Part shown: piece by piece, positions 23,716-53,163 of the stretch
Layout: the number at the start of each line of letters is the position of its first letter
How positions within the stretch are numbered: the first letter of the stretch is position 1
Assembly (NCBI GenBank): GCA_004431415.1
Contig: QPMI01000513.1
Location: forward strand, 1-64,000
DNA: 64,000 nt
Source: Cyanophora paradoxa CCMP329
Taxonomy: Eukaryota; Plantae; Glaucophyta
Direction: 5' to 3'
Made by a program: the position numbers and the translations under genes
Notes under the pieces: model-generated
Told to the model about the DNA's origin: nothing
The model's input: the letters and a program-made list of their open reading frames with translations, nothing else
The model's database searches: none

Positions 23716-23739
23716 TCGATTTTCTGATGCAATCCAAAA

Positions 23740-24942
23740 ATGTCAGTTGCTGTTCCTTTGTTCACCTACGCTGCCAGCGTGAATCACAAGGGCGATCACA
23801 CGATCAAAGAGACCACCCTCGGCAACCAGGCCACCGAGACCCCCTACAACGCCACGGCTGTCCCCTTCTCCGAGGCCAACCTCGTGCGCGTCGGCGAGCT
23901 GCGCTGCGACAAGATGCGCACGCGGGAGGGCGGGTCGGCCGTGCCGGGGCGCGTGAGGACGCAGAGGCTGACCGTCACGAACGGGGCCTGGGACGGGAGC
24001 GGGTACACCACAAACACCCTGACGTTCAACAACGCAGATGGGGAGGCGAATGCGGCCTTGTACGTGCAGGGAGGGGGCGCTAACGTGGTCGGGGGATTGA
24101 GAGTCAACGGGGCTGCGACGGTTACCGGCGTCGTCAACGCAGCCTCGGAGCTCAACTCCCCTAACATAACCGGAACCGCTAATCTGTCCAATGCAACTAT
24201 CGGTGCGCCGTCATCCGTCGCAACTTCCGTCTTGAACGTTAAAAGCAAAGACGTCGGAAGCGGACAATGGGCAAGCCTGTGGTGGGATTTCGACAACCGA
24301 CACTACATGGGCGTGAAAAACTACAAAGCGGCCGATCAAGCCACCGTGACCATATGGAACGATACAGCGGCCTGCCCTTTCCTTGTTGCTGCCCTGGGGT
24401 CTACGACAGGTCGCTCCATCGCAGCCGGGGGCACTGTCAACACCGCAGGAAGCGATTACGCAGAGTACATGCTAAAGAAATCCAACGACTTTGCCTTCAA
24501 CAAGGGCGATATCTGTGGGGTGAACGGCTCAGGACTCCTAACCAATCAATTTACGGAGGCCGTCACTTTCGTGGTGAAGAGCACCAACCCATCCTTCGTA
24601 GGGGGCGATACCTGGGGCCAGTCCCTTGGAATGGCCCCCCTGAAGCCGGAAACGGACGACCCCACCGCCCTCGCAGCCTACGAAGCCGCCCGCGCCGCCT
24701 GGGAGTCAGCGGCAGAGGCGAATCGGCAGCTGGTCGATCGGATTGCATTCTGTGGACAGGTCCCCGTGAACGTCAGCGGTGGGGGCCCGGGAGATTACGT
24801 GGTACCCACCCCAGGACCCAACGGAGCAATCGCCGCCCAGGCCGTGGCCGCCCCATCCTTCGACCAGTACAGGGTCGCCGTCGGTAGAATCATTCGAGTC
24901 GTTTCAGATACGCAGGCGCTAATTATCGTGAAGGTTGTCTGA
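23740..24942 (+). CDS. Fibre/spike protein with C-terminal intramolecular-chaperone (peptidase G2/S74-like) domain
   Basis: GSDYAEYM...GDICGV...DRIAFCGQVPVNV...GDYVVP. N-terminus homologous to 52201-53163. Confidence 0.8.
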   Translation: MSVAVPLFTYAASVNHKGDHTIKETTLGNQATETPYNATAVPFSEANLVRVGELRCDKMRTREGGSAVPGRVRTQRLTVTNGAWDGSGYTTNTLTFNNADGEANAALYVQGGGANVVGGLRVNGAATVTGVVNAASELNSPNITGTANLSNATIGAPSSVATSVLNVKSKDVGSGQWASLWWDFDNRHYMGVKNYKAADQATVTIWNDTAACPFLVAALGSTTGRSIAAGGTVNTAGSDYAEYMLKKSNDFAFNKGDICGVNGSGLLTNQFTEAVTFVVKSTNPSFVGGDTWGQSLGMAPLKPETDDPTALAAYEAARAAWESAAEANRQLVDRIAFCGQVPVNVSGGGPGDYVVPTPGPNGAIAAQAVAAPSFDQYRVAVGRIIRVVSDTQALIIVKVV

Positions 24943-25000
24943 TGAGCGATTACCACACAAATACAATAATACCCTGATTGTTGTTCTTCCACATAAGATT

Positions 25001-27073
25001 TTACATGAGCGCGTGAACGGCACTGGCGTCCGTAATAAACGTGTTAAAGAAGAGCACATCGTCGACCCAGCCGTTCCAGAGGTTCGCGGGGGATGACTCG
25101 GTGACACCCGCTCCAATGCGCAGGGGATACTGCGTGTTTGGAGCGTAGCCGGCTGTCCTTGTTTCTACGGTTGAGCCCACGCGAATGGAGTGTGTCGTGC
25201 CATTGTACCCTACGGCAATCTTATACTGCGTACCTGCATTCGCTGCACTCGTTCCGAAATCAGCCCACGCAGAGCCATTGCCCGGGTAGGACAGAAACAC
25301 ACCATTGCTCCTGTACAACGAGTAGCCCGTGAACAGGCCGCGGGATGCTACAGGGGTCCAATAAGTTCCTGTTGTCGTAGCGGTGAAAAGGCAGGAGCAA
25401 AGTACCGAGTACGTCGAGGTATTGAGGGCTGCAGAGTAGGGAACTTGCAGATAATGGGAGCTGCCGATATCGAATGTCACCCGGCCACTCGTATAGCGAG
25501 GTTGCAAAGATGCTGTATCCTGGGTCGCGTGCCTCCCACCCCCCGTCTGATCGTACATTGTCTGAACAGTTGCTGTGTACCCCGTCACCCAAGTCGTGTA
25601 ACTTGTTCCAGACCGATCGTACGCAGAATTCAAGACGCCTGAATAGTCAGCGTACCAATCGGCGGTAATTCCATCGCTGCGACGCAGACGGAGCGTGGGT
25701 CCGACATAAGAGGGCCGAACCCTTCGGGTTGAGTATGCGGCCACCAGTGCATTCTTGGTGGCCGTTGAAATGGTGGCGCTGTCCATAAAACTGTCAATTG
25801 TCGTCGCAAAGGCACTGCTGGAGGCAGGCCCCTCCTCGCCAATCTGGTTAACGCCCTTGACGGTGTAAGTGTAGGTCGTCCCGAACGCGGTCGTCGCGTC
25901 CGAATAGGGGCTGCTGACGTCGTTCGCGAGAAAGACGCCGTCCCTGTAAATGTTGTAGGAGACGGTGACGCCCGTCGCCGGCGCCGACCAGGCAAGCACC
26001 ACTGGCTGGGCGGCCCCCGCCGTCGGAGTCGCGGTGAGCTCCGTGGGCGCCGCCGGATCCGTGGTGACGTACGTCACTATGCTCTTCAGTCCCTCCCCTC
26101 CCGAGTTCGTCGCGGAGACCTGGTACTCGTACCCCGTACCCCAGATCGTGGTCGCGTCGCTATAGGAGTTGGTCGCGGAGTCTGCGAGGTAGGCCCCGTC
26201 CCTGTAGATCTTGTACCCCGTCGCCCCCGTTGGCGCCGTCCAGCTGAGGCTGACGGGCTGCTCTATGTCGTCGGGCGCAGTCGCCGTCACGTTCGTGGGC
26301 GCGTTCGGCGGCGTCGTCCAGACCGGGAGCGGATCGGACTTTTCGTATTCGACCCCGCCCACGATGCCGGCCACCTGGTAGGAGTACTCCGTACCCCACG
26401 CAAGGGCAGTGCTATCGTCGATGTACGAGGTAGCTAGGGCGCTGCTTGCGAATCCGATAGGGGTGCCGTCTCTGTAAATTCGAATCGAGTCCGTGCCCTC
26501 CATGGCCACCCAATTGATTGTGACGACGATGGCGGGTTTCGGGAAGCCGGAAGACGCGGGGCCGCCCCCGGCAATAAAATCGCCGTAGGTCTGGGCCGTG
26601 GCGGTTGTGAGCGTGGTGTACGCCTCGATCTGAGGGTTGAAGCCGCTCAGGCCTTGGAAGAGAATGTAATTGCTTGTAGTGCCCTCGTGCGTGTAGAGAA
26701 GCGACTGTGCGTAGGTTGTGGGTGGGGCTTTGCCATCGGAGCCCGTGCTGCTGCTGCCCTGCTCGCGAACCGCGGCCACCCGGTAGAGACGTAGCTCGCC
26801 AAAATTAAAGGGCGTGTCCGTGTACGTGAGCGTGGGGGCGTTCACAGTGTTCACCAGCGTCCAGGTGCCATTGAGGCTCGTCGCCCTGTACACCTTGTAC
26901 TTGACGGCGTTGGTGACAGCACCCCAGTTCAGTCGAAATCCGTAGGTACCGCCCCCGTTGTTGAGCACGGAGCCCGATCGCACCTGGGGCCTGCCCACAG
27001 TGAGCGAGATCGGCTCCACGCCGTACTGCGGGGCCTGCACCACCTGTTTCTTCACGAATACGAAGCGTGGCAT
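25001..27073 (-). CDS. Fibronectin-III repeat protein with C-terminal concanavalin/LamG-like (arabinofuranosidase-B-like) domain
   Basis: Four Fn3-like units (W....A..Y.IYR.G...Y.D......Y.Y.V) followed by AAYSTRRVRPSYVGPTLRLRRS...MYDQTGGGRHATQ. Confidence 0.8.
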   Translation of the reverse strand: MPRFVFVKKQVVQAPQYGVEPISLTVGRPQVRSGSVLNNGGGTYGFRLNWGAVTNAVKYKVYRATSLNGTWTLVNTVNAPTLTYTDTPFNFGELRLYRVAAVREQGSSSTGSDGKAPPTTYAQSLLYTHEGTTSNYILFQGLSGFNPQIEAYTTLTTATAQTYGDFIAGGGPASSGFPKPAIVVTINWVAMEGTDSIRIYRDGTPIGFASSALATSYIDDSTALAWGTEYSYQVAGIVGGVEYEKSDPLPVWTTPPNAPTNVTATAPDDIEQPVSLSWTAPTGATGYKIYRDGAYLADSATNSYSDATTIWGTGYEYQVSATNSGGEGLKSIVTYVTTDPAAPTELTATPTAGAAQPVVLAWSAPATGVTVSYNIYRDGVFLANDVSSPYSDATTAFGTTYTYTVKGVNQIGEEGPASSSAFATTIDSFMDSATISTATKNALVAAYSTRRVRPSYVGPTLRLRRSDGITADWYADYSGVLNSAYDRSGTSYTTWVTGYTATVQTMYDQTGGGRHATQDTASLQPRYTSGRVTFDIGSSHYLQVPYSAALNTSTYSVLCSCLFTATTTGTYWTPVASRGLFTGYSLYRSNGVFLSYPGNGSAWADFGTSAANAGTQYKIAVGYNGTTHSIRVGSTVETRTAGYAPNTQYPLRIGAGVTESSPANLWNGWVDDVLFFNTFITDASAVHALM

Positions 27074-27112
27074 TTTCCTCTACGATCCGAAAAAATATCT
27101 GCCCCGGGGTAA

Positions 27113-27793
27113 ATGACTTCCAACTGGAACCAGACTCTCAAAGGTGATCTGGATGTTGGTACCAACGCCAAGGATTTCGCACGCATCTCCTCTGGCAGCT
27201 ACGTGGACGTCTTCCTGCAGAATCCCGTCGTGATTCAGGCCGTTCAGAACGCCTATGCCACGCCCAAGATTTACTCCTATCAGCTCTTCTTCGACCCTCT
27301 GAGCCTCAGCGCAGAGGTAATCGAGCTGCTGCACGAATCAGGACTCGTGAAAAAGGTGGCACCTGCCACGGCCACTGCCAACGTCTTGCGCTGTCTCGAG
27401 GTCAAGTTCAGGGAGACGGGGTACGGCCCCACCGTGAACCGGTACCCCAGTTCTTCGAATCTTCCGGGTACGGGAACTTACCAGATGAGGGGTACGCTCA
27501 AGGGCGACGTGCTCTTCACGAAATTCAATCCAAGTCCCGCGACCCTGGGGGCCCTCTACACGGGCGGCAACCCACGCGGCTCGACTCTACCCCGCTTCCC
27601 CTTCACCTTTTTCAGGTTCCAGGTCTTCCCCCTCTCCTACGCCGCCGACCAGCCCCACTTCAGCACGGGCGCCAGCCTCTGCGCGGAGCTGCGCGAGTGC
27701 TCGATTTCCTACGCGTACGGCACCGACTGGGACTCTGTGCCTGGGGCCCGCGTCATGAACATCGGTGGCGACATCACCCTCTTTCACGGATAA
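27113..27793 (+). CDS. Hypothetical protein, paralog A
   Basis: Shares QNPV, SGL.KK..P, LE.KF, NPR...PR..FT.F.F and G..L.AEL.E with 27817-28629. Confidence 0.7.
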   Translation: MTSNWNQTLKGDLDVGTNAKDFARISSGSYVDVFLQNPVVIQAVQNAYATPKIYSYQLFFDPLSLSAEVIELLHESGLVKKVAPATATANVLRCLEVKFRETGYGPTVNRYPSSSNLPGTGTYQMRGTLKGDVLFTKFNPSPATLGALYTGGNPRGSTLPRFPFTFFRFQVFPLSYAADQPHFSTGASLCAELRECSISYAYGTDWDSVPGARVMNIGGDITLFHG

Positions 27794-27816
27794 TCTTTCT
27801 CATTTGAGGTCGCAAA

Positions 27817-28629
27817 ATGCCGACCACCTCGGCCACCATCGTGAAGACCGTGTCTGCCGGCTCGATCGTCCCCGATTTCTACGGCAACGCTGGGAACGTG
27901 GCCAACGCAGGGACGGACAAGGTGGAGTGGGACGGAAACTACGCCACCCCGCTCACCGTGAGGGTCCAGAATCCCGTCATGTTGCGCGTCACCTCCAACG
28001 ATTTCGAGAATCCCGCCTCCTGCTCCGTGTACGTGTACTTTGACATCGACTCGGGCGTGAGCGCGGATGAGGCGGAGGCGCTCTGGCTCTCGGGCCTCCT
28101 GAAAAAGATAGAACCCTCTGTGCCTGATCGGCCCGCCATTCGCGTGCTCGAACTCAAGTTCACCGCTAACACCGCCCTCACTCGCAAATTTGCGAATGGT
28201 GCGAATCCGAACATCAAAACGCATTTAGATGGCGCCCTCATCGATGCCACACACAAGACCACGCAGGCCGTTCCCTTTGAGATGTACAACCTCTGGAAGA
28301 TGACCGCAAAGGAGATGATGACGAATGCCACCACGGGCGGCGCCTCGGGTACCGATTATTCATACGGCGCCTCGAATCCCCGTACCCAGGTCTGGCCCCG
28401 GCTCCTCTTCACGAAATTCACTTTCAAATTGTACAACAACATCGCCGGAATGCCTACCTCTGGAATGGTCGTGGGCTCTACCCTCATGGCCGAACTAATT
28501 GAGGCAGAGGCGGACTACACGATTGCGACTACCAACTCGACAGCGCCAGGCGCCGGAGCCGAAGTTTACGTGGCCTGGGAAACGGTCGGTCGCGAGTACG
28601 ACACCAAGATTCACACCACTAGCGTCTAG
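27817..28629 (+). CDS. Hypothetical protein, paralog B
   Basis: Shared motifs as for paralog A; TCTTTCT motif upstream. Confidence 0.7.
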   Translation: MPTTSATIVKTVSAGSIVPDFYGNAGNVANAGTDKVEWDGNYATPLTVRVQNPVMLRVTSNDFENPASCSVYVYFDIDSGVSADEAEALWLSGLLKKIEPSVPDRPAIRVLELKFTANTALTRKFANGANPNIKTHLDGALIDATHKTTQAVPFEMYNLWKMTAKEMMTNATTGGASGTDYSYGASNPRTQVWPRLLFTKFTFKLYNNIAGMPTSGMVVGSTLMAELIEAEADYTIATTNSTAPGAGAEVYVAWETVGREYDTKIHTTSV

Positions 28630-28984
28630 ACTGGCTAAGCTGCATTAGTGCCTGCGCCGCCTCCATCATCTCCGCAATCTCTTCGCTCTTCTCCCGCAGG
28701 CTTGTACCCTCCCTCTTCTTCTTCTGGATCTCCGACATCGATACCCAGCGCAGGTTTTCCCTCCTGTAGTCCAGCGGGTTGCCGTTGATGTGCTCCACGT
28801 ACAGTCCACGTGGCGGCTTCCCGAGGATGAGCTGGGAGAGGTAGTGCTTGCGCCTTCCAAATGTCTTCGTCACCCTGCCCCTGTCCAGTCGCCAGGGAAA
28901 CTCCATCGCACTCCGGGGTACGTCCGAGTTGACCAGGACGTTGTAGGGCAGGTCGCAGGAGTCGGTGCACTTGAGCAGGGCCAT
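28619..28984 (-). CDS. HNH homing-endonuclease-like protein
   Basis: VEHINGNPLDYRRENLRWVS, compared with canonical DHINGN.LDNR..NLR; the substitutions may inactivate it. Confidence 0.75.
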   Translation of the reverse strand: MALLKCTDSCDLPYNVLVNSDVPRSAMEFPWRLDRGRVTKTFGRRKHYLSQLILGKPPRGLYVEHINGNPLDYRRENLRWVSMSEIQKKKREGTSLREKSEEIAEMMEAAQALMQLSQSRR

Positions 28985-29016
28985 TTTGCCCTAGGCTCAG
29001 AAAATGTTCGACCGGG

Positions 29017-29117
29017 GACCTTGGACCTTGGTGCTCGGACCTTGGTGCTTGGTGCTTGGTGCTTGGTGCTTTGGAAGCGTTTCTCTCAGGACCCGGGCCC
29101 AGACTTTCTCCAGGATC
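29017..29117 (-). repeat. Inverted-repeat arm L: (CTTGGTG)n heptamer tract plus ~50-bp unique part
   Basis: Reverse complement matches 29416-29471 plus 54432-54475. Confidence 0.85.
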
Positions 29118-29156
29118 GGAAATTTGTCAGACAAGTCAGGTGAGTTTTTCTACGGA

Positions 29157-29235
29157 CTTTTTTACTCGTAGTCTTTTTTAGTCGTACCACCCCTCATACT
29201 CTTTTTTACTCGTAGTCTTTTTTACTCTTACGACT
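29157..29235 (+). repeat. Iteron-like direct repeats CTTTTTTA(C/G)TCGTA
   Basis: Four imperfect copies inside the IR-bounded non-coding spacer. Confidence 0.7.
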
Positions 29236-29415
29236 TCTCGTACCCTCTGTCTCTTGACATCTCGCTTGAAATCGCTCTCGAAAACTCTGTCGACATTTCA
29301 GACTCTACCTCTCTCGAAATCTCACCTGGAATGTCACCGGAAACGTCGTATGCAAAATGCAGTACCCCTTTCTAAGTCTGCCCGATGGTTAATGACTTGG
29401 CGCGGCAAACTCGCA

Positions 29416-29471
29416 GATCCAGAGAAAGTCTGGACCCAGACTCTGAGAGTAACGCTTCCAAAGCACCAAGC
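29416..29471 (+). repeat. Inverted-repeat arm R (first part; continues at 54426-54475 after the PLV)
   Basis: GATCCAGAGAAAGTCTGGACCCAGACTCTGAGAGTAACGCTTCCAAAGCACCAAGC is the imperfect reverse complement of 29061-29117. Confidence 0.85.
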
Positions 29472-30338
29472 GCTCGCTTGGGGGTAGCCCCCACCAATTG
29501 CGCGACCTTCCCGCGACCATTTTCAATAAGCACATTTTCAGCATCACGAATCTCAGTCACAAAATCACAAATTCGCACTGAGCCACATTGTATTTTTCAA
29601 ACATCTAACCCTTCCTTACTGAAACCAATCACGAAACCCTTTCATTCTTCATTTTTCTAATTCCTTACCATTCCCAGTAAGCCCTTTAACTTTCCCCGAT
29701 CTCTCAGTAAGGACAGTAAGACCCTCATTTTTACGAAATGTTCCCGATCGTTTCCGGACTGTTTTCAGTTACCCAAATTGAAAAATCAAGGTGAGCCCAC
29801 CAATTAAACAAGTGATCCCCACTTAAAGCAGTTAATATACTGTAACAATGGCAAGCAATCAAGTAAATTTACCTGAGAGTAAGCGGTGCAATGTTTGCGA
29901 TAAGGTAAAACCGGCATCGAGTTATGCATTGCAAAAGCGTAGCTCAGGGAATGTACTTTTGAATTGGAGATGCAAAGACTGCGACCGAGAGTATCACAAT
30001 TACCTTTATCATTGTGTGTTAAAAACGCGTCCGAAGATCGAAGTACAATCGAAGATATGCTCGCACTGCAAGATTGAGAAGCTTGCAAGTGAGTTTAATA
30101 AAAGACAAAGAACGAAGGATGGTCTCAACTACCAATGCCGAGAGTGTTATAGCAAAACACGTAAGAGTTAAACCGAATTTCATTTTATATTTTTTAAAGC
30201 AAGTTTGTGCATGAGCAAGCATGCCGAAAATGCCCACCTGCACAAACTTGCGAGATCAAGGTAAGCCCCACCGACAAAGTACGACGATAGACCACGTTAA
30301 AATAAACTCGCGCCCCGCCCACTATGCAAGATACATGC
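29472..30338 (+). repeat. Left terminal inverted repeat (867 bp)
   Basis: Reverse complement of 53557-54425; the only differences noticed are two C-run length changes. Confidence 0.97.
29848..30171 (+). CDS. TIR-encoded protein with two CxxC...CxxC zinc-binding repeats
   Basis: KRCNVC...CKDC and KICSHC...KDGLNYQCREC; identical copy at 53724-54047. Confidence 0.7.
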   Translation: MASNQVNLPESKRCNVCDKVKPASSYALQKRSSGNVLLNWRCKDCDREYHNYLYHCVLKTRPKIEVQSKICSHCKIEKLASEFNKRQRTKDGLNYQCRECYSKTRKS

Positions 30339-30388
30339 AAACAACATGCGAGATACATATATAAATTGTTTTTCTCTTCCTATAATAA

Positions 30389-31198
30389 ATGAAGACTCAC
30401 TTTTACCATAAATATACCGGCAACAAGTATAATGAAATGAATACGATCTATCCATATATCGATTTAGAAGGAATTAATAAAGTTATAGAACCGTTTTGTG
30501 GTTCAGGTGCTTGTAGTTTCTATCTTTGGGAAAAGCATAAAGACCGGTTTGATTATTATATGAATGATAACGACGAAACCCATACCCTTTTTTTGAATAC
30601 AATGAAAGACCCAGACAATAAAGTTAAACTCTTAGAGAGTCTTAAACAGTTCGAAGCAGTTAGCAATATAGAAGAGCACAAAGAAGTCTATAAGAAGTTT
30701 CTACAACATGATCGTAAAGATGCAATGGATTACTTAGCTCACCATTTCTATCTTCTTAAAAACAGCATTTTAAATGTTAAAACCCTCCGTGATTTCAAAA
30801 AACGAAACGTAAAGGTGAGTCCATATACAACTCTTAAAAATAAGATACCTTACGATGATTTCATAAAAGAAGTCAACCTATCCCATGGGGATTTTCGCGA
30901 TATCTTAGCGAAATATAGAGATGACGAAGCGGCTTTTATATTTCTCGATCCTCCATACGTAAACAGCAATAATGACTTTTACGAAAATGTAGAATTCGAT
31001 TTAGAAACCTTCTTTTTGGATTTGGAAGACCTATTTAAGACAGCGAAATGCAAGGTTATGATGGTTGTAAATGATGCTCTTTTAATGAAACTACTATTTA
31101 AACCCTATATTCGCCATACGTATGGCAAAGTGTATGGTATGACAAAAAAGAAAAGAAACCATCTCATTATGACTAACTATGAACTTGGTGAAAAATAG
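30389..31198 (+). CDS. DNA N6-adenine methyltransferase, Dam/D12 class
   Basis: Motif I IEPFCGSGA and motif IV FIFLDPPY. Confidence 0.92.
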   Translation: MKTHFYHKYTGNKYNEMNTIYPYIDLEGINKVIEPFCGSGACSFYLWEKHKDRFDYYMNDNDETHTLFLNTMKDPDNKVKLLESLKQFEAVSNIEEHKEVYKKFLQHDRKDAMDYLAHHFYLLKNSILNVKTLRDFKKRNVKVSPYTTLKNKIPYDDFIKEVNLSHGDFRDILAKYRDDEAAFIFLDPPYVNSNNDFYENVEFDLETFFLDLEDLFKTAKCKVMMVVNDALLMKLLFKPYIRHTYGKVYGMTKKKRNHLIMTNYELGEK

Positions 31199-31229
31199 AG
31201 TAATTAAAATATTTGTTAAATAATTAATA

Positions 31230-31622
31230 ATGGATTCCCGATACCGCGGCTACCACGTTATGCTCGACTATATAACCGACCCGTTTACTGAGTCCCCGGA
31301 GGCATGCGCCGAGTGGATCACAGCGAACCTATCGCAATATATCACAGATCGCAATATGCGCATCGTGCACCAGCACACATGCATTTTCGATGGCTCTATT
31401 TCCCCTCCCGGTTTCGCGATTGGCTTTCTATTAGATGAGTCGCATGCCACAGCTCACTCTTATAGCGACCAGGGGCTATTAGCGATCGATATCTTTACAT
31501 GCGGCTCAAATGCCGAAGCGAAGACAATGGGTATAGCACAGGACATTAACGATCTCATACAGGAAAGGCTGAAAGTGCGAAAGTGGGACTTACAGGTCGA
31601 GCAAAGGTTCCCAATTTCATAA
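31230..31622 (+). CDS. speD: S-adenosylmethionine decarboxylase proenzyme (prokaryotic class 1B type)
   Basis: LLDESHATAHSY self-cleavage ES site and AIDIFTCG. Confidence 0.9.
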   Translation: MDSRYRGYHVMLDYITDPFTESPEACAEWITANLSQYITDRNMRIVHQHTCIFDGSISPPGFAIGFLLDESHATAHSYSDQGLLAIDIFTCGSNAEAKTMGIAQDINDLIQERLKVRKWDLQVEQRFPIS

Positions 31623-31647
31623 AAAATGAAAAAAACGACAGATATAT

Positions 31648-31962
31648 TTAATGCTCCTTGATCGGAAACTTGCCCATTAGCGGGTGATCGAGACCCATGA
31701 CATACCAGGATTTCATAACGGGATCCCAGCGGGCTTTCTCAGCCTTCGCTTGATCCTTAAATTCATAAGGAATATCGAGGTAAACCTTCAAGTTTCTTTG
31801 ATACACTTGCTCATAGCTTAGAGTCTTGAACTGAGAGCATAGAGAGTGATCTTTCTTCGTGACATACCAGCATGAATTCTCACGATCCCACTTTCCACCG
31901 AGGGATTTCGCAACGTCTTTTTTATCAAACGGAATATCCACGAAATGCTTTTCACCCTCCAT
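31648..31962 (-). CDS. Tandem DUF5710-like domain protein
   Basis: Two copies of DIP(F/Y)..KD.AK....WD.....WYV. Confidence 0.75.
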   Translation of the reverse strand: MEGEKHFVDIPFDKKDVAKSLGGKWDRENSCWYVTKKDHSLCSQFKTLSYEQVYQRNLKVYLDIPYEFKDQAKAEKARWDPVMKSWYVMGLDHPLMGKFPIKEH

Positions 31963-32001
31963 CTCTTTTATATTTACCGGAGAAAATAATTTCGGGGTTT
32001 G

Positions 32002-33381
32002 TTATGAACGAGAAGACCGAAGAATGCGCGTAGTAGGGGCTGTGTAGCTTGCGCTCTGATTCTTGAATGATTTATACCACCGCTGACTGTTTACCTCTGA
32101 GAGCTTCTCAGTGCCGGCAATCGTTAATTTCGCGAGCTCTCTAAGCGCCCTCTTAGTCTTCTCCGCGCGATCTTCCAATAATGCGCCTTTCGGAACACTT
32201 GCGGCGACATCTATGCCTTCTTTTTGAACCTGCCGGATAGAAGCGGCTTCCATTTCGGCTGCTTTGATTGCGTTGCCTGATGGTTCCACCACAGCTTCGA
32301 CCTCTGTAATGATCTGCAATTCGTGCGGCTTAAAAAGCTTCGGCATTACGTTCCCCGCTGCATCTTGCACCTCTATCGCGTTTCCTCTCCTTCCCGCAAT
32401 TTTGTAGACCTCTCTGCTATACCTTTGTGTTGCTCCTTTATCAAACTTTGATCTCGGCAATAATACACGGACGTGGAGACCCGGCTTAAAGTCGCTGAAT
32501 ATATCCTTTACGATTGTGTTCTTCTTTGAAATAATAGCCGCTCGGATCCGCTCCATATCAGAAAGCTTAACATCTGCGGGTTTCATTCCTATGGTTCTGT
32601 GAATGGTGTTATTATAATTGAAAACGAAGTCGTCCAATTTGTCCATGAATCGAACTGTATTATAAGCGACACAGTAATTGTTTATCATCGTTTTTAAGGT
32701 CAAATGAAAGCGATTCATTATTCCAGAGAAGTGTGATCTCCGACCTGTTTAAAGCGGTGTTCTATTCCATTATTTTTAACGACCTCCTGAAACTCCTTCG
32801 CGATGAATTCCGAACCGTTATCTGTCTCCAATCGAATCATCGGAGCCGGGAGCTCTGTGAGCATCTCCGCAAAAGCGGCGGCAACACTTGCGCCCTCCTT
32901 ATTCTTTAACTTCTTGGCATATGCTTTTCGGCTTGTCATCTCGATGAGAGTAAGGACTGCAATGTAGCCGGAATTATAATTGCCATATGAGAGATAAAAG
33001 ATGAGATCCGCTTGATAGCACCACGGCGGGGCTGTGATGGGAATAAAAGCTGTTTGGGTCGGTGCTGGGGCTTCTTGTTGATCTGCATAAATTCTTGTTT
33101 CGCTGCGACATCTTGCACTTCTTTCAATGTGAGGCTCTTGTCCTCTTTTCTCAGCTCTTCGTACAATGCCGATGGGTTCTTAAAACCTGTCTTTGGGTCA
33201 TACATGCGGCGCACGATCTTAGAGGACGGGTTAGCAATGCTAAAAGGAACATCTCCTAATAAATTTGATTTTGCTTGGCGTTTTGTGATTTTTTGGGGAC
33301 TTGCTCAGTTTCAGGAACCGCGATAGGTAGTATGGTGGTCTCTGTCTCCTCGCCCGCTACCCTTCTAACGATCCGTGACAT
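32002..33381 (-). CDS. Retroviral-like (rve) integrase, three single-base frameshifts
   Basis: YDPKTGF N-domain; YQADL (D1), ETDNGSEF (D2), HTSL(G)IMNRFHLTLK, YNNTIHRTIGMKP and FDKG...YSREVY. Shifts at about 33290, 33040 and 32722 fall in short base runs. Confidence 0.88.
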
Positions 33382-33399
33382 TCTTCTAATTAAACCTGT

Positions 33400-39749: not shown

Positions 39750-39751
39750 GA

Positions 39752-40618: not shown

Positions 40619-40676
40619 TCTTTCACTATAAAAACAATAGAAAAATAAGACTGACTGTGGTAATCGCACGAATTCC

Positions 40677-41990: not shown

Positions 41991-42037
41991 GAGCGTTTCT
42001 TCTCTTATCTTTGGGATCAGAAAATAATTTAAAGGGC

Positions 42038-42964: not shown

Positions 42965-42980
42965 CTTACTATAATAGATT

Positions 42981-43826: not shown

Positions 43827-43832
43827 GCGCTG

Positions 43833-45326
43833 TCACACGTAGTAGCCCTCGAAATCTATTCGGCATGCCGAAGCTACATTCGTAGTAAGCACCCAGATTA
43901 CGAGGGTTCTCACAGATCTCGGGTTCGCTAAGAAATGTTCGTCGGGTTCTACACTTCCGGCTATTTGATTTGCATTGGTAAACACTCTCGTCGCGCCGGC
44001 TTCTGTGTATGTGACAAGCGCCGAAACTCCCGGAGTTAATTGGTAATCGATTTCAAACGTTTTAATGTAGTTTCCATTTGCAGCCGGCTTCATTTTTATA
44101 GAGGAAAGCATAAACAGACGCGGAAAATCAATGCGTAAATAATTGCCTCCCGACCTACTACCTTGCGGCGGGTTGGTAAATCCCACCCACCCCGTAGCAT
44201 TTGACCAGCGGGCATCAGAAGCTGTGCCAAATTCCGCAATAAAGGCGCTATTATCGAGCGGCACCCAGTTAGACTCCGGGGGTGCGCTTACATCTGTGCA
44301 CCCGGACAGATTAATTATGGGAACATCGCCCTCTGAGATATTCATCGTCAGCACTGAATACATCGCATTAAAATACGTTTGCTGTGCGGAAACAAAGGCG
44401 AGCGCTTCCGTTTCCAAATATTGCAGGTGCGTCGTTGTGGTTGTATCGAGGGTCATTTTATCTTTCGGTAAAGGAACGCTCAGCTTATAGTAGCGATCGT
44501 AATTCTGATCATCGTTTCTGGGTAAAAGTTCCAGTAGCTTTACGTGGGCGTTTAGATCGCTCGACTCTAAGAACATGCTGAGAATTGGCGATCCTGTGGC
44601 GCTTAGCATCCATTGCACGATCCCCCAATTTTTCATGGTGTCATACGAATATCCCGCGGTTGCTTTATCGGCGTCTTGGACGTGACCCGCCGTAATCGAG
44701 ACCACGATAAGCTCCTCCTCGCAAGAGTTTCCGAATAAAGTGCGGGCAAATGTGTAGCCGCAAACCCCGGGCGAATTATTTCCACTCATGCAACCATCGA
44801 TTAAACAATATGTTCTTCCGGCGACTGTGACTTGTTTCGGCTCGAAATAGGTCGGAGCAGCCGAGGTAGCCCTTGCAGCATCGCGCACAAGCATCCCATT
44901 AATATCTTCATCGTTGCTTGAAATAAAAACGGGGGACATTAAGACCGTGTCGAACGCAGTTACTATGGTGGGTTTGTAGAGATCCGCCATGGTCGCTGAG
45001 CCGCAGAGTTCCAGAGCCACAGCTTCTAAGTTAGTTGCTTCGTACTTTGGGCGCTGTACAATCGATGTAAGCACTCGTGGATTCGCGAAAATCAGCGGTA
45101 GTTTCGCTTTGTAGAGCGCGAGAATATCAGTGGCAGTATATTTAGGGGCGCCATCGGTTCCCTTGATATTCAATAGGAGCGCGATTAATCCACCTGTGGA
45201 TGTTCCCGCAAAGCAGTCGAATAGCTGTTGGATTCGTTTACCGGTTTGGGCTTCAATCTGTGCCAGTATAGCAGCCTCGATTATTCCACGCGACCCTCCA
45301 CCACTCAGACATAAAACGGTCTTCAT
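43833..45326 (-). CDS. Patatin-like phospholipase fused to F5/8 type C (discoidin) domain
   Basis: LSGGGSRG, GTSTG, ATSAAPTYF, IDGC; C-terminal YLRIDF...YIKTFEIDY...CRIDFEG. Confidence 0.88.
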   Translation of the reverse strand: MKTVLCLSGGGSRGIIEAAILAQIEAQTGKRIQQLFDCFAGTSTGGLIALLLNIKGTDGAPKYTATDILALYKAKLPLIFANPRVLTSIVQRPKYEATNLEAVALELCGSATMADLYKPTIVTAFDTVLMSPVFISSNDEDINGMLVRDAARATSAAPTYFEPKQVTVAGRTYCLIDGCMSGNNSPGVCGYTFARTLFGNSCEEELIVVSITAGHVQDADKATAGYSYDTMKNWGIVQWMLSATGSPILSMFLESSDLNAHVKLLELLPRNDDQNYDRYYKLSVPLPKDKMTLDTTTTTHLQYLETEALAFVSAQQTYFNAMYSVLTMNISEGDVPIINLSGCTDVSAPPESNWVPLDNSAFIAEFGTASDARWSNATGWVGFTNPPQGSRSGGNYLRIDFPRLFMLSSIKMKPAANGNYIKTFEIDYQLTPGVSALVTYTEAGATRVFTNANQIAGSVEPDEHFLANPRSVRTLVIWVLTTNVASACRIDFEGYYV

Positions 45327-45369
45327 TATCTTATATACTTCTTATATATCTTCTTTGTTTATAAAGAGG

Positions 45370-48300
45370 ATGTCGTTCCTGAATCCGCGACCAGACGCAC
45401 GAGTTATTAATTCGACCACTCAGATAGAGGACACTGATCAGGTAAACACTGAAATTCGCGGGTCTCTGAAAATAAACTTCAATGCAGACCGCGAAGATCC
45501 AGTCAGTGGAACACCGAGCAGACCCGCAGCTTTGCAGTTAATGAACGTCGAGAAAGGGGATCATAAACTTGGAATCGACTTTTTACTTGATGATAACGAA
45601 CGAAACAGAGTCGCCAGCATTCAGGCAACCCGCCAGCTACCGAAAACGGTGCGATATAATCGTAGGAACATCCCGAAAGCATTCGATAGAGGTCGCTTAA
45701 ACTTCTTCATTCAAGATGAGAGCGGTTTCCAAAATGCAGCTATGAGAATCGTGGATAATAGCACACTTATAGCGGGAGTATCCACACGGAAAACAAAGGT
45801 AGAGGTCGTCCATGATCTCTCAGCAGGTAATCTAACGACGAGTAACATTACAGCAAGTAACATCACTACGGATACCCTAAATGTAAACTCGCTTAACTCC
45901 GAGTCGTTTTTCGCCACCAATGTCGCAACCTGTAACCTAAACATCGAATCCTTTGTGATTCAGAAGAGCGAATCGGTTCCCCAGATAACAGAGGGTGTTT
46001 TCACATTAGACCCCGCGAAACCGACCTTAGAAATTGTCGAAAATGGGAACGTTGTGGATATAATTGGCGCCAATGCTCCGAATGTGAGATCCTTAGCACT
46101 TGATAAAACGACTATATCATTTGCAGAGGAGATTCCGGCTTTTACCACAGAGAAACAGGCACTGAGAACAGATCATGTTTACATTACCAGAGACAATATA
46201 AACGATCTTTTAGGCAAGGACATCGTAAAGGCGTTTTTGGAGTTCGAGAGGAGCAAGAACACCAAAGATTCCAGCCAGGATGGAACCCTCACGACCCACA
46301 CTACTGAAATCGCGGCTTTGCAATCCGAAATTAATGCTCTGTTTGCAGCAGATGGAGCGCTTGCAATTACCTTAGCCCATATTCTATCGAAAAGGAACAT
46401 TTACCCCGCGACTGATAACACATACCGGGTTGGTTTATCGAATCTGAGATGGTCAGAGGTGCATGGAGTTTCCATGTTTGCCTCCAATTTAATCCTTCCA
46501 TTTAATCACTCACTCCGACCCAATCAGATTCTCACCAGTGATAATGCACTGATCAGCTACACTGACTTTAATAGTAACCTTTCCCGCTCGGTTTCGCAAA
46601 CTGAGACCTACACTGTCGAGGGATACCCTCAGCAGCTCGCAAATGGGGTCTATGTCGCTTATGTAGGCAAACCTACATATACATTCACTTGGGATCAGTT
46701 GGGTGTCACAGGTTTCGAGACGAATATACCCACTGTTTCATTGGTGGATCACACTACTTATTATAATCCTATCTATAACAATAATGAATCTAATAAAGCA
46801 TTTATCCAAAATGTCACCTCCACAGGGTTTCAGGTTTCGTTTGTCATTAACGAGACATACAATTTACTTATCATCCGAAACAACTCATTGAGTTCCGAAG
46901 CTACTATAAGTTTCACTCTTAACATCAATTATATCACCCCTGAATTCGATAGCGAACCCAGAGTAAAGGTTTACCGAGATTTACAAGGTAGCAATATCGT
47001 GCCCTTCTCACAGAATTTCGATCTTGGTGCGAATTCTTTAAGGTGGAACACAGTTTATTCTTTGAGTGCAAACACCTGTAATATTGTAGTCGCAGGTTCA
47101 TCGGCTACTATTGGAGATCTGACCGCGCCTTTTAGAAAGGAGTATCTTAAAGAGCTGTATATAACAAAGTCTGATTTACCAGATGCTATTTCGTTGGTAC
47201 TCTCCCCCACTCCCAGCATATCCTACCACAATGTGAAAGACACAAGTAATGTAGTGCAGAGTGGAAGCAAAGTATTCCAGGCATCCGAGATATCAGCAAC
47301 AACATATAGATATCTTGCAGGGGTTCCAGCGAATTTTAATTTTACATTTGAGACACCATTTGTCTCTCCTCCTACTATTGAAATAACTGACACGAATTTG
47401 TATGTGGTCAATGATGGGTCAGCTACATCACTTCAAAATGCACCAGCCGGCTACTCCCCGTTTGTTGCAACTAACATAACAACCACCGGCTTCACACTTG
47501 TCGGAAATGCAACAGTGACATATGCTCTGTCAGGGTATCCTGTTGGGTTGTATTTTTCGAAATTTAATCTCTCTGTTATCCCAGCAGTGTCCCTTGCTCC
47601 TCCCTTTACTATCAGTTGGAAGGCAACAGGAACTATTCCGCGATTTGACCCCGAAGATCGATTAAAAATACGGTATCCTCTCGATGTTACCGACATTCAT
47701 ACTACGAGAATAAATGGGCAGAATTTCGTATTTAATGGAACCAATGCGACTCTGATCGATAATCGAGTTACAAATAATTACTTTTTCGATTCTCGATATA
47801 TTAATACTTGCAACATTGTCATACAGAACACGTTTGAGAATCGCAGTAAGACCTTAACAGTCACCTTGCCCACTCACTCGAATGTCTCAGATGGATTTCA
47901 CTATTACCTGTTCAATCGCAATTACACCTCTTATATTCCATATCCTTCTGAGACTGTGAACATGAGCTATCCCAGAGTCACCTTAACATCGACCAATGCT
48001 GACTTCTTTGGATCCACAGACTTCATGAGAGACTTCTTTTATTTTACATCCTCCACAGATGGTCTCTTAGTTTATTACTCTTACAAATATGAGTCAATTG
48101 CTACCCAAATCGAAAGCCACCCAAACACTGATGTGATCACAGCAGGCGATAAGAAATATATAAAAACCGCTTCCCCATGGGTGTGCACTGTCCGGCTTGA
48201 TGACAGATACACTCCTAACCTAAATAACATTGGATTGCACTCGACATGCAATATTTATGTGCAAGGTGCGATTTCGGCTACCAAATATTTTGAGGGTGGA

Positions 48301-48942
48301 AATTGTGATACAGGACATAGGTTGCTATCGCGAAATGGACTCTTTGAGTCATTCAGTGGGACGGCTCTACCGCCCTTTATCAGGGACACAGTCTATGATA
48401 CCACATGCAATATTTGGGTGTGTCGATCTGTGAGCAATCCACCTGTGACACAGGAATTATACAAGTATCTCGCAGATACCTATGGTGCAATCTCAGGATC
48501 CTCCACAGGAAATCCAGCGACGGCTCCCATCGTGTTTGCGAATGCATACACAGCGCCAACATCATTAGCAGGGTCGACAGAGCCGCCACCAAATGATCCA
48601 AATCCGAACCAGCCTAACCCAGATCCCGATTCACAAGATCCCCCTACAACTAATCCAGATCCAAACACACCACCTAATAATCCCACGAATCCTACAAATC
48701 CAGTCGGGGCACCGGGAACAGATCCAGGAACGTTAGTGCTTATGATTCTCTTGCCGATTCTCGGTGCTCTTGGGCTTGTGCTTGCATACAAATTCCGAGC
48801 TTTGTGTTGTGCATGCATAGACAGAACCATTGCAGGAGCAGGTAATAAATACTCCACACCAGAGCTTAATGTGACCCAAACAGCCGAAGGAGATGTGGGC
48901 TTAGAGGTGAGATCAGCCGAGGGCATGGTCTTAGTGTTGTGA
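45370..48942 (+). CDS. Large fibre-like structural protein with Pro/Asn linker and C-terminal TM helix
   Basis: Start MSFLNPRP. Repeated P....(Y/F).(V/L)G...LRW..V modules, T.TGF lectin-like units, PNPNQPNPDP linker and LVLMILLPILGALGLVLAY. May extend to 49093 through a frameshift. Confidence 0.7.
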   Translation: MSFLNPRPDARVINSTTQIEDTDQVNTEIRGSLKINFNADREDPVSGTPSRPAALQLMNVEKGDHKLGIDFLLDDNERNRVASIQATRQLPKTVRYNRRNIPKAFDRGRLNFFIQDESGFQNAAMRIVDNSTLIAGVSTRKTKVEVVHDLSAGNLTTSNITASNITTDTLNVNSLNSESFFATNVATCNLNIESFVIQKSESVPQITEGVFTLDPAKPTLEIVENGNVVDIIGANAPNVRSLALDKTTISFAEEIPAFTTEKQALRTDHVYITRDNINDLLGKDIVKAFLEFERSKNTKDSSQDGTLTTHTTEIAALQSEINALFAADGALAITLAHILSKRNIYPATDNTYRVGLSNLRWSEVHGVSMFASNLILPFNHSLRPNQILTSDNALISYTDFNSNLSRSVSQTETYTVEGYPQQLANGVYVAYVGKPTYTFTWDQLGVTGFETNIPTVSLVDHTTYYNPIYNNNESNKAFIQNVTSTGFQVSFVINETYNLLIIRNNSLSSEATISFTLNINYITPEFDSEPRVKVYRDLQGSNIVPFSQNFDLGANSLRWNTVYSLSANTCNIVVAGSSATIGDLTAPFRKEYLKELYITKSDLPDAISLVLSPTPSISYHNVKDTSNVVQSGSKVFQASEISATTYRYLAGVPANFNFTFETPFVSPPTIEITDTNLYVVNDGSATSLQNAPAGYSPFVATNITTTGFTLVGNATVTYALSGYPVGLYFSKFNLSVIPAVSLAPPFTISWKATGTIPRFDPEDRLKIRYPLDVTDIHTTRINGQNFVFNGTNATLIDNRVTNNYFFDSRYINTCNIVIQNTFENRSKTLTVTLPTHSNVSDGFHYYLFNRNYTSYIPYPSETVNMSYPRVTLTSTNADFFGSTDFMRDFFYFTSSTDGLLVYYSYKYESIATQIESHPNTDVITAGDKKYIKTASPWVCTVRLDDRYTPNLNNIGLHSTCNIYVQGAISATKYFEGGNCDTGHRLLSRNGLFESFSGTALPPFIRDTVYDTTCNIWVCRSVSNPPVTQELYKYLADTYGAISGSSTGNPATAPIVFANAYTAPTSLAGSTEPPPNDPNPNQPNPDPDSQDPPTTNPDPNTPPNNPTNPTNPVGAPGTDPGTLVLMILLPILGALGLVLAYKFRALCCACIDRTIAGAGNKYSTPELNVTQTAEGDVGLEVRSAEGMVLVL

Positions 48943-49130
48943 GGACTGACCGACCACCAGCAAATAGGGCAGCACCCAAAAAATCACGAGCACAAGAATT
49001 GGCAGAGCAAACGATGAACAATGATAGAGACTTTATGGCGGAAATGGCACAGCGAGAAGGGAGAATATATGAACATGTTCCAAACGTTATGTAACAACCT
49101 TAATTTTGTAGTATTCCATAATAGAGTATA

Positions 49131-52100
49131 ATGACTGAACCCATAGTAGAAACGACAATAAAGAATGCGGTATTGGATAATAATTTTATATAACCCATGC
49201 CAATATACCCAGTGAATCCAATGACCTGATAGTAGATCTAAAAGGGTATGTGATGGGAGCTATGGCTTCCAACCTGTGGAATGACATTTTTGGTTACGAG
49301 TTTGGTCACATATATGACATAGCAAATGGGATTGGCTATGTGGATGCAATGGCGGGAACAGTCTTTCGAAATCTAAATTGCAACTGTGTGGGTGGGTGGA
49401 TGTTTCAGATCTGTTCAAACGTCGATCCTACTATTGATCCAGCTACTGTGACCTTTGATTGCAATCTATTCGCCCCTAAAACCATTTTCTCCATCACTTG
49501 CAATCTCGTTAATTCGGATGTGCCCATAATAGCACCTGTAATAGGTGCATCAAATATGTATATCCAAAGAAACCCGGTCGTGCATACAGGTGCCGAATTT
49601 ATATTGGGCGACAACACCCCAATTAGTCGAATCGAACTACCCAATTCTCACAAGCATTTGTGGGAACATATCACCAATGCCCCATTAACCTATCCACCCA
49701 GTTCTCACGAGCATTTGTGGGAGCATATCACCAATCGACCATTAACCTTCCCACCTGATCCACACACTCATGATTACTTGTCTCTCAAAGGTGGTGTTAT
49801 TTCATCTAATCTTACAATTGCATCAAACCTTACAGTTACAAGTAATATTTATAGCAGTAACATTTATGCAAGTAACATTTACAGCAGTAACCTATGGGCA
49901 AGTAATATTAATGGAAGTAATGTAATAGTCGATTATCTCACTGTGAAGATTGAAGCAAACCTACCAAATCACCCGACATCGAATGTTGTTTTAGATTGGT
50001 TAGCAAAGCAAAAACACACAAAAGCAGATATTACAGATTTCGCCCATAAGCATTTATGGGAAGATATCACAAATCCCCCATCGACCTTCCCACCGGGAAA
50101 ACACACTCATGATTATTCAGAGATTACCAATAGTAACCACAGGCACCCATGGGAGGAAATAGATGAGCAGCCAGTTTTTGCGCAATTGAATGCAATCGGA
50201 AATGTTTTTAATGGGGTCACACTTTACCAATCGATTAATACACCTGAAAGGCTATTTTTGAATGATCATTATGTTAGTCTGAATGGGTCGTTTACAGGTG
50301 AAACAGGCACACCGATGGTGGGAACTCTTGCTGTAAGATTACCCAGGGATCCAATCGTAAACGGAGTGTATAGTGGCGATTTCAATGTAGGAGTAAATGA
50401 TACTTTCCCCAGTATCTATGTTACGAATTATCACCCAGGAGAAATAGGACAAGAAGCGGATTTTTCAGCAGCAATTCAAGTAAATGTAACGGATCAAAGC
50501 GCATATGATGGAGCAAGACCTAAGATTGTGTTCACAAGGGAGAAAGTTGTAAACTATCTTCCTGTTGTGGGACAACCCACAGATGATCACGGAAAATGCG
50601 AGATTGCATGGATTAAAACAACAACAGGTGGCGCCTTAGAAGTCAATCAGAGAATGGCGGCGAAAAACTTACACAATACAACCCTTTCAGGTGTGGTAAC
50701 AGATGATTACCTCCAAAGCAAAAACTATGTAGATGATACAGAACTTGCAGCAATTCTTGAAGATTATGTTACAGATACCGAATTAACGTCGGCTCTTGGG
50801 AATTATCTACCTCTTACAGGTGGGACTCTTACAGGTGATGTGCACGCCCCGAATTTCTTTGTCGACACTCCACATGATCAAACATTTCCTGTTGTCCACC
50901 TTGGTGCTGAATATGTATTAGATCCAAACACTCCAATAAGTCGACTCGAATTACCCAATGTTCACAAGCATTTTTGGGAGCATATTGTTAATCCCCCATC
51001 GACCTATCCACCTGATTCACACGATCATGATTATTTACCACTAACAGGTGGAACTGTGGCAGGTGATGTGCATGCTTCTAATTTCTTTGTTACTACTCCG
51101 AATGATCAAACATTTCCTGTTGTCCACCTTGGTGCTGAATATGTATTAGATCCAAACACCCCAATCAGCCGCCTCGAATTACCCACGAATTTCACCTTTA
51201 ATCTCGTGGATGAGTTCCCTAACAGTCAAAGTCTCATGTATTTCACCTCTGAAAATCGCCTTTCGGGTGCATTCTCACCAATTGAGCTGTCTATACCAAA
51301 GCAAAAGGTGAGCTACAAGGAGCTTACAGATGTGCCGACGGGATTCAGTGGGAAGTGGAGTGATATCATTCAGAAGCCGACTTGGAGTAGTGTAGCATAC
51401 ACAGGAAATTACTATGATCTTGTAAATCCTCCCGATTTCACAAGCTATATACCTCGTTGGATTGATCAAGGTGTAATTATATCAGAATCTACACTTCCTT
51501 TCAATGGGACATGGGATAGGTTATTTACTAAGCCGAATTTGCATGCTGTTGCCACAAGTGGAAATTATGATGATCTGATAAACACTCCAAACCTACATGC
51601 TGTGGCTACAAGTGGAAATTATGATGATCTGATAAACACACCAAACCTACATGCTGTGGCTACAAGTGGAAATTATGATGATCTGATAAACACACCAAAC
51701 CTACATGCTGTGGCTACAAGTGGAAATTATGATGATCTGATAAACACACCTACTTCGCCACCTACTCACAATCACAGCATCGAGTTGCTCACGAATTTCG
51801 GTAGCTATGTAAATGCAAATGCATATGTGCAACAGGGGACAGCGGATGTAGTTATACCTAATCAAGTTTATACAGTAGGGCAAGTGTTTACAGCATCAGG
51901 AACCGTTACGTTTTCTACCCCATATTATAGTGATCCAATAGTTAATGCTACTCTCGAAAACAGTATTATTTTAACGAGTGTCGATTTCACCAATAGCATA
52001 TATATCTCCGCTGAATTTGTGAGTGGGAACCGTGTTGGTTTCAAAAATAAATTCACCTGGATTGCTATATTTACTTGTTATTCGGCGATCAATTATACGA

Positions 52101-52180
52101 ATGTGCCACAAAACGAAAGAACGCTTAAACTCCATTGGATTGCTGTCGGACCTCTCCAAAACAATAATATTCTCACGTAA
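49131..52180 (+). CDS. Large fibre protein with His-rich repeats (frameshift near 49185)
   Basis: ATG at 49131 joins the 49250 ORF through a T-run. Contains HKHLWEHITN.P.T.PP repeats, YLPLTGGT, VATSGNYDDL repeats and C-terminal LHWIAVG. Confidence 0.78.
51533..51750 (+). repeat. Four tandem 54-bp units (PNLHAVATSGNYDDLINT)
   Basis: Units start at 51533, 51587, 51641 and 51695. Confidence 0.92.
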
Positions 52181-52200
52181 TAATAAAGAACAATCAAAAG

Positions 52201-53163
52201 ATGTCGACTGTGTTCACGCCTGTGTTTTCCTTATCAGCCAGTGCTGTCCATAACGTGCAACACACTGTATATGATCTAAACGAGTCATTCCCTTCGACTG
52301 AGACAGCGAAAACCGATTCTTTTAATGAAAACACGATACTCAGAGTCAAAGAACTCAGAGCCGACAAGGCCGGTGGAATCGTTAAAGCTACTGAACTGAT
52401 CGTATCGAATCGACCCGCAATATCTTCGGGGCTGGTCACCAAAGATAATCTATATGAAGGTCAAGCGGATTATAAAACAGCTTTCGATCCGGCTGATAGG
52501 AAATCAGCGGCTTTTCAAGTTTACAGTGGCGGGGCATGGATCGGGACTGGACTGAGTGTGAATGGGAATGCGACGATTACTGGAAGCCTTACGGCTGGAT
52601 CATTTGGGACAGTTAAAACGACCACTATTGATTCTGGGGCGAACTCTGATTTGTTGATTAAACGAAATGGAGTTGCAATGGCGACAGTAACTTCAACAGG
52701 TTTGACAGTCAATAGTGGAACAAATATGGGTTATCTTTCTCTTCCAAATCATCCAAGTTTCATGGTTTATGGAGTTGCCTATTCAACAGGTAGCACAGCA
52801 ACTACCTCATATGTCAACTATCCTACTGTGGCTTTTAATATTGGAAACAATTTCAGTGTAGCTTCTGGTGCAACCCCCGCAAGGTTTACAGCTCCTGTAA
52901 GCGGAATCTATCTATTTAAGTTTTCAGTTTATCCATCAACACCTGCTGGAACGTGGGCTATGTTCTTTCGTGTAAATGGAAGCACAAACTATTACAATCA
53001 GTCCATTCAGAATCAAGGCACCCTTGCTCATATGGAAGCGGTGCTTATGATAAAACTGAATGCAACAGATTACGTATCACCATTCCTAGGACATACAACA
53101 GGTGTTACGCAATTGACATATGATTTTAACTGTTTCCAAGGTGTTCTTCTTCATGCTACCTAA
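52201..53163 (+). CDS. Fibre protein with C-terminal C1q/TNF-like head
   Basis: PSFMVY...FNIGNNFS...RFTAPVSGIYLF...LNATDYV...FQGVLL. N-terminus homologous to 23740-24942. Confidence 0.82.
   Translation: MSTVFTPVFSLSASAVHNVQHTVYDLNESFPSTETAKTDSFNENTILRVKELRADKAGGIVKATELIVSNRPAISSGLVTKDNLYEGQADYKTAFDPADRKSAAFQVYSGGAWIGTGLSVNGNATITGSLTAGSFGTVKTTTIDSGANSDLLIKRNGVAMATVTSTGLTVNSGTNMGYLSLPNHPSFMVYGVAYSTGSTATTSYVNYPTVAFNIGNNFSVASGATPARFTAPVSGIYLFKFSVYPSTPAGTWAMFFRVNGSTNYYNQSIQNQGTLAHMEAVLMIKLNATDYVSPFLGHTTGVTQLTYDFNCFQGVLLHAT

Follow-up and report, generated by a model that had tools for sequence, protein, structure and literature searches.

The 64-kb window analyzed here (positions 1 to 64,000 of contig QPMI01000513.1 of the glaucophyte Cyanophora paradoxa) contains two viral elements of differing base composition, a Mriyavirus-like element on the left and a polinton-like virus (PLV) on the right, each of which encodes a putative fiber protein; both fiber open reading frames (ORFs), 23740-24942 and 52201-53163, are present where a first-pass annotation of this DNA had placed them. 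The interpretation that we favor, with a probability of about 0.7, is that these proteins are modular fibers of the kind known from phages, built on a new family of N-terminal anchor domains that was anciently shared by the two virus groups, with heads that turn over within virus families.

A fiber base shared by two virus groups

The common N-terminal anchor proposed for the two fibers in the first-pass annotation is borne out by sequence comparison. BLASTP aligns residues 2-136 of one protein with residues 3-134 of the other at 34% identity over 145 aa (E=2e-12), and the local alignment score of 144, against a mean of 31 for shuffled sequences, is reached by none of 1000 shuffles (z=21). Each half of the anchor is significant alone (z=13.5 and 9.7); the heads of the two window fibers are unrelated (z=0.8). 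In an all-against-all comparison of 29 left-element and flanking ORFs with 19 PLV ORFs, the only links between the elements are the anchor, the ATPases, which align at 23% identity, and short repeats in the genes upstream of the fibers. No similarity was detected between the major capsid proteins (MCPs) of the two elements (z=-0.6) or between their penton candidates (149 aa versus 308 and 281 aa; z of 1.6 and -0.1). Because the anchors are 34-40% identical, depending on the alignment, whereas the MCPs and penton candidates share no similarity and the ATPases only 23% identity, and because the domain is not widespread, non-vertical sharing of the anchor between the two viruses is supported.

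As far as the searches reach, the anchor domain appears to be rare. A full HMMER pass (hmmsearch without a word index) with a two-sequence anchor profile against 1.84 billion representatives yielded nine matches at E<=0.001, namely five host-proteome proteins from copies of the left element and four environmental proteins encoded on contigs of 1.3-3.3 kb (P0025, P0026, P0028 and P0030). A seven-sequence profile revealed no further lineage among 7990 scored candidates, and a single-sequence search with residues 1-150 of the PLV fiber, covering 314 candidates of 176-560 aa, gave no match. IMG/VR, JGI contigs and prokaryote genomes were scanned with patterns, phage records with tblastn, and PHROGs were searched as well; all of these approaches, which are less sensitive than the profile search, found nothing; all scores in an ESM Atlas search with the anchor were below 0.9, and a PDB sequence search with the left fiber gave no significant match. 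One matching phage locus was dropped, its 29% identity falling in an unrelated ORF.

On a multiple alignment, the two window anchors are 40% identical, the PLV anchor is 56% identical to P0025 and the left-element anchor is 44% identical to P0026. In a 12-row tree, in which long branches were flagged, the PLV anchor groups with P0025 (95/93), seven copies from the left element stand apart (100/98) and the four environmental relatives fall on at least three branches. Of the two findings that the first-pass annotation named as refuting its proposal, a widespread domain was not observed, but the window copies are indeed not each other's closest kin, the PLV copy being closer to P0025. The two elements share no blastn match, and the GC content at third codon positions (GC3) of each anchor fits its own virus (0.84 in the left element and 0.41 in the PLV). 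Since DNA similarity is lacking, codon use fits each virus and the PLV anchor is closer to P0025, the exchange is judged to be old, the sharing antedating the present sequences.

Exchangeable heads on a constant base

The first-pass annotation assigned a C1q head to the PLV fiber, and the match to Pfam C1q (PF00386; 32.4 bits versus a gathering score of 23.7) agrees with that assignment. The evidence on the autocleaving chaperone domain assigned to the left-element fiber is mixed: in the ESM Atlas, this head resembles Peptidase_G2 (likeness 0.95, 182 of 256 features in common, cluster 100% PF11962), but Pfam hmmscan gave no match. The DYAEY motif would be a candidate for the Peptidase_G2 catalytic site.

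The left-element anchor motif occurs in 21 stored gene models of the host, one of which is the window's own protein and many of which are truncated or chimeric. Among the full-length left-element fibers, the base is 84-98% identical and is followed by five types of heads: the Peptidase_G2-like head (the window protein, P0001 and P0008), three C1q heads that are 27-35% identical to one another (P0003, P0041/P0027 and P0032), and a domain of approximately 140 aa without a family match (P0002). In four of these proteins (P0002, P0003, P0032 and P0041), identity to the window fiber falls from 70-100% to at most 50% past residue 120, and this switch point, at approximately residues 120-140, coincides with the end of the homology to the PLV fiber. 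Across all head types, the change of sequence falls near residues 125-135. Judging by the gene-model numbers, P0002, P0003, P0008 and P0032 lie only a few genes from conserved genes of the left element; on tig00021036, for instance, the models are MCP g17369, HUH g17377, g17380 and fiber g17384. As read from these sequences, head turnover within a virus family is a feature of the left element.

Assembly depth shows a similar discontinuity in both elements, with the reservation that contig depth, according to the tool that reports it, is not copy number. In the left element, depth drops about tenfold across 24304-25631 in all three DNA runs. In the PLV, the bins covering the anchor have a depth of 3700-8700, and the head lies on a single contig of 717-720 nt with a depth of 92-202 and 0-2 differences; this low-depth contig (52603-53322) sits between high-depth flanks in all three DNA runs, with depth recovering at 53201. 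The pattern suggests that PLV copies likewise carry differing heads. GC3 is lower in the heads than in the anchors (0.67 versus 0.84 in the left element, 0.28 versus 0.41 in the PLV), which fits a later acquisition of the heads.

Identity of the PLV C1q head is 20-29% with the three C1q heads of the left element and 23-30% with environmental ones; mutual identity among all six C1q heads compared is 20-35%, and no branch of the C1q head tree was supported. With the PLV head no nearer to the left-element heads than to the environmental ones, a swap of heads between the two window viruses is rejected. Of the exchange of fiber modules between the lineages that the first-pass annotation envisaged, the non-vertical sharing of the anchor is thus what we retain.

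A predicted trimeric base

The PLV anchor is predicted to form a homotrimer. Folded in three copies, it attains an ipSAE of 0.81, versus 0.00 for the best of three controls; agreement between runs extends to at least 69% of contacts, and the pLDDT is at least 53. In the calibration, which was made with two copies only, 21 of 30 solved homo-pairs but none of 23 single chains passed the mark applied. The predicted interface comprises residues 41-73 and 104-135. Residues 1-40 are not named in it and, although uncertain in the model, appear to be free for another partner; four positions are invariant across seven anchor sequences (H17, H21, E34 and F41). The adenovirus fiber is a trimer with a free N-terminal arm, a shaft and a terminal head. 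We liken the anchor-based fiber to it by architecture alone (trimer, arm, shaft and head), and binding to a penton would be the corresponding expectation.

Under the mechanism that we propose, residues 1-40 would be an arm that docks on the capsid vertex, and the trimeric base would hold a replaceable head that is either receptor-binding or chaperone-bearing. The heads would bind receptors on the host surface and might be renewed when co-resident or co-infecting copies recombine with each other in the conserved flanks. Differing tips on a constant base probably vary the attachment to cells.

Alternative interpretations

Several points weigh against the modular-fiber interpretation. It draws on sequences, assembly depth and predicted structures. 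The anchor searches were seeded with two to seven sequences and the pattern scans are insensitive, so that the domain may be wider in distribution than it appears; the distal half of the anchor match (AAL.V.GG...GL.V.G) is, moreover, presumably akin to a generic fiber repeat. The anchor monomer model has a pLDDT of 38, the trimer model is also of low pLDDT and was judged by the two-copy calibration, and its passing the mark may reflect likeness to solved beta-fibers. A second type of PLV head was not directly observed, and the depth pattern would be no different if some copies had lost the head. Finally, the transfer may have run in either direction.

In one alternative, the anchor would be a widespread, fast-evolving fiber base of protist DNA viruses that the two elements hold independently, its rarity being an artefact of the searches. 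The placement of the four environmental proteins on three or more branches, the window copies that are as close or closer to environmental proteins (56% and 44%) than to each other (40%), and the occurrence of the upstream repeats and of both head types in phages all agree with such a scenario, and glaucophyte-associated viruses are probably under-sampled. We nevertheless consider it unlikely, given that the full HMMER pass gave just four non-host matches and that, without a history in a shared host, a family this rare would hardly be expected to turn up twice within 28 kb of one genome. It is quite improbable that the anchors are cross-compatible, such that either fiber could be mounted on either capsid, with phenotypic mixing or co-entry and with the PLV parasitic on the Mriyavirus-like virus: the invariant residues lie within or beside the free N-terminal arm, the PLV appears to sit within a repeat belonging to the larger element and both families are multicopy in one organism, yet anchor identity is no higher than 34-40%, the penton candidates are of unequal size and lack similarity, and the second PLV flank described below indicates that insertion is not confined to the larger element. 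There is similarly little to be said for the PLV as a virophage-like parasite that integrates into a Mriyavirus-sized genome, with a dual-fit fiber socket, one pool of heads and mutual carriage of fibers. As for a recent exchange in this genome or at the site of nesting, in which the two viruses would have traded heads, the physical nesting and the presence of C1q-headed forms in both families could be taken to favor it; we reject it as barely conceivable because there is no nucleotide similarity, codon amelioration is full, and the PLV C1q head is no closer to the left-element C1q heads than to environmental ones.

Relation to known fibers and viruses

For the question of how PLVs and Mriyaviruses recognize their hosts, the modular fibers that we favor would provide a candidate attachment protein with a natural allelic series, in which a constant base carries at least five heads in viruses whose MCPs are 93-98% identical. 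Many sequencing runs exist for the host of this series, and receptor specificity is thereby open to direct testing. The common base indicates, in addition, that within one host structural modules have crossed between two viruses whose capsid proteins are unrelated.

Phage receptor-binding proteins are described as modular, with an N-terminal anchor and an exchangeable C-terminal module (PMC8262889, PMC10408124). The fibers described here resemble them in the constant N-terminal module, the replaceable C-terminal specificity module and the phage-type heads (C1q and Peptidase_G2-like). However, in the phage proteins, as presented in these sources, the anchor follows the virion scaffold while the head moves, whereas here the anchor itself is common to two tailless eukaryotic viruses with unrelated capsid proteins and no phage family was matched. 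Phage-like fibers of PLVs, encoded by large repeat-rich genes with chaperone or lectin tips, have been reported (PMC12220804; the Ltf of Gezel-14T, 10.1101/2022.07.28.501842). In PMC12220804, patatin-discoidin fusions are reported from PLVs of Glaucocystophyceae, and PTR together with H_lectin from one PLV of Cyanophora paradoxa, which agrees with the gene types of the window PLV. The accessible parts of that study, including the supplementary files examined, mention no C1q head, and they mention neither Mriyaviruses nor a shared anchor or within-family head cassette.

The Mriyaviricetes ('Gamadviridae', nucleocytoplasmic large DNA virus-like dwarf viruses, NDDVs) are described as encoding an MCP, A32 ATPase, VLTF3, RuvC, a helicase and VLTF2 but no DNA polymerase in genomes of 35-45 kb, adjacent short and long HUH genes being a trait of the 'Gamadviridae' (PMC11253617). 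Endogenous NDDVs have been described in the Gezel-14T preprint (10.1101/2022.07.28.501842) and in Phaeocystis (Phaglo-G; PMC11253617). The left element is likened to the Mriyaviricetes by gene content alone (MCP, A32 ATPase, VLTF3, RuvC and the adjacent HUH pair). It differs from the described members in being multicopy in a glaucophyte, in having three variable tips and in apparently hosting a nested PLV; the words 'fiber' and 'tail' do not occur in the main text of PMC11253617. Two recent preprints describe PLV groups as frequently exchanging genes and as forming a continuum with Mriyaviruses (10.64898/2026.06.19.733378), and report virus-virus exchange in co-infected protists (10.64898/2026.07.28.741200). 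In the literature searched, which left out subscription journals and bioRxiv supplements, there was no report of the anchor family, its sharing between PLVs and Mriyavirus-like viruses or the head series; a multicopy Mriyavirus-like element in a glaucophyte was likewise not found, supplements being mostly outside that search.

The two elements and their neighboring genes

The left element is called Mriyavirus-like because its gene set is that given for Mriyaviruses in the available text of PMC11253617. It encodes a Nucleocytoviricota-type double jelly-roll MCP (5232-6602; Pfam Capsid_N, E=3.4e-8, passing the cut-off), VLTF3 (Pfam, E=2e-24), RuvC (Pfam Pox_A22, E=3e-7) and an A32 ATPase that is frameshifted in the window copy, with the Walker A motif in a different frame, and was recognized by its similarity to the PLV A32 (E=2e-7). 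Two adjacent ORFs, one short (13715-14557) and one long (14581-16610), contain HAH motifs and are homologous to each other (z=12.6), which makes them HUH genes at the level of motifs, Pfam giving no match. Among the left-element ORFs scanned with Pfam, there was no match to a helicase, VLTF2 or a polymerase, the ends of the element being provisional, and no close MCP relatives were found in IMG/VR scans. Near-identical proteins are present among the Cyanophora paradoxa gene models in EukProt (14 members in the MCP cluster and 12 in the HUH cluster); the MCPs of five copies are 93-98% identical to that of the window. No integrase was seen in this multicopy element. The predicted model of the penton candidate (17518-17967) is all-beta (pLDDT 54), and no entry of BFVD or PDB matches it at E<=0.001, so that the protein remains a candidate. 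A pair of beta-rich ORFs (27113-27793 and 27817-28629), paralogues of each other (z=30) without a known family, are kept in many copies and are possibly further structural proteins. Single-base frameshifts, some of them in homopolymer runs, affect 10503-11906, 14581-16610, 18491-23715 and 32002-33205 in the window copy and may reflect either assembly error or decay.

The right element is identified as a PLV by its terminal inverted repeats of approximately 870 bp, an A32 ATPase (Pfam, E=1.8e-10), two DUF5901-like paralogues (one with a weak Pfam match, E=0.0015; z=11.8 between the two), a patatin, a helicase and a broken, frameshifted integrase of the rve type (32002-33205), which was read from motifs, Pfam giving no match. 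The MCP candidate (40677-41990), also without a Pfam match, was assigned from its size and position. The element is 24.95 kb long and is flanked by a 6-bp target duplication, CCAAGC, at 29466-29471 and 54426-54431. It appears to be inserted within the larger Mriyavirus-like element, because it splits one arm of a heptamer-repeat element (with an inverted copy of the repeat at 29010-29112 and a direct copy at 56560-56660), because a contig of run X18 links 29436-29465 directly to 54426, as expected of an empty site, and because the contig depth of the region 29186-29297 is as high as that of the left element. In the same run, loose ends at 29471 and 54416 point to another PLV flank, and the window locus is therefore not the sole insertion site of the PLV.

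Table 1. Fiber modules, viral elements and fiber-adjacent genes in the window
Feature	Position	Strand	Basis
Fiber base (anchor), left-element copy, approximately residues 1-134	23740..24140	+	BLASTP and shuffle homology; 84-98% identical among copies
Fiber base (anchor), PLV copy	52201..52602	+	BLASTP homology; predicted homotrimer interface
Left-element fiber head, variable; here a short shaft and a Peptidase_G2-like chaperone domain	24141..24942	+	Atlas features; low depth at 24304-24967
PLV fiber head, short shaft and C1q domain; likely to differ between PLV copies	52603..53163	+	Pfam C1q; depth pattern
Mriyavirus-like endogenous element	2114..29471	.	GC of ~60%; gene content; multicopy; ends provisional
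Polinton-like virus (PLV)	29472..54425	.	GC of ~44%; ~870-bp terminal inverted repeats; CCAAGC target-site duplication
Large gene upstream of the left-element fiber, two ORFs (18491-19477, 19636-23715)	18491..23715	+	Charged helical-type region; phage-type repeats; variable C-terminal tip
Large upstream fiber-repeat gene of the PLV	49253..52180	+	Repeat matches; indels at 48995-49183
FN3-repeat gene, convergent to the fiber	25001..27073	-	Pfam; C-terminal part in the low-depth zone
Small conserved ORF 3' of the PLV fiber, its 3' part bounding the variable stretch	53120..53461	+	Depth pattern; no family match

The genes immediately upstream of the two fibers had been described in the first-pass annotation as a related pair. 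The motifs quoted there are present, although KADITDWAHRHL is located in ORF 18491-19477 and not in 19636-23715, but the likeness is limited to short repeats (the best high-scoring segment pair is 48 aa), which also match phage tail PHROGs, and to a weakly similar terminal domain (z=3.7; 8 of 1000 shuffles). Approximately 1100 aa of the left upstream protein have no counterpart in the PLV. Homology of the whole genes was rejected on these grounds, and the two are best described, from their sequences, as repeat mosaics and not as full-length homologues. The two left-element ORFs probably represent a single gene that is interrupted in the window copy, given indels in G-runs at 19249-19318 and the fused gene model P0004; in other copies, the PLV gene may form one reading frame with 45370-48942. 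At the tip of the left upstream gene (23375-23698), other copies have a diverged stretch of the same length. The low-depth C-terminal part of the FN3-repeat gene region (24968-27073) adjoins the fiber head, and the two tips, arranged tail-to-tail, may be replaced jointly.

Other genes of the PLV include a D12 adenine methyltransferase adjoining an S-adenosylmethionine decarboxylase (30389-31622; Pfam) and a replication gene of 1438 aa (33400-37716) with a weak match to SF1 helicases, an N-terminal region without a Pfam match and an HNH-like end that was read from the sequence. A cysteine-rich ORF of 107 aa is duplicated within the terminal repeats (29848-30171 and 53724-54047), and this part of the repeat is skipped or replaced in other PLV copies. 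To the right of the PLV, four ORFs without a family (54534-57610) surround the third copy of the heptamer repeat and may continue the left element.

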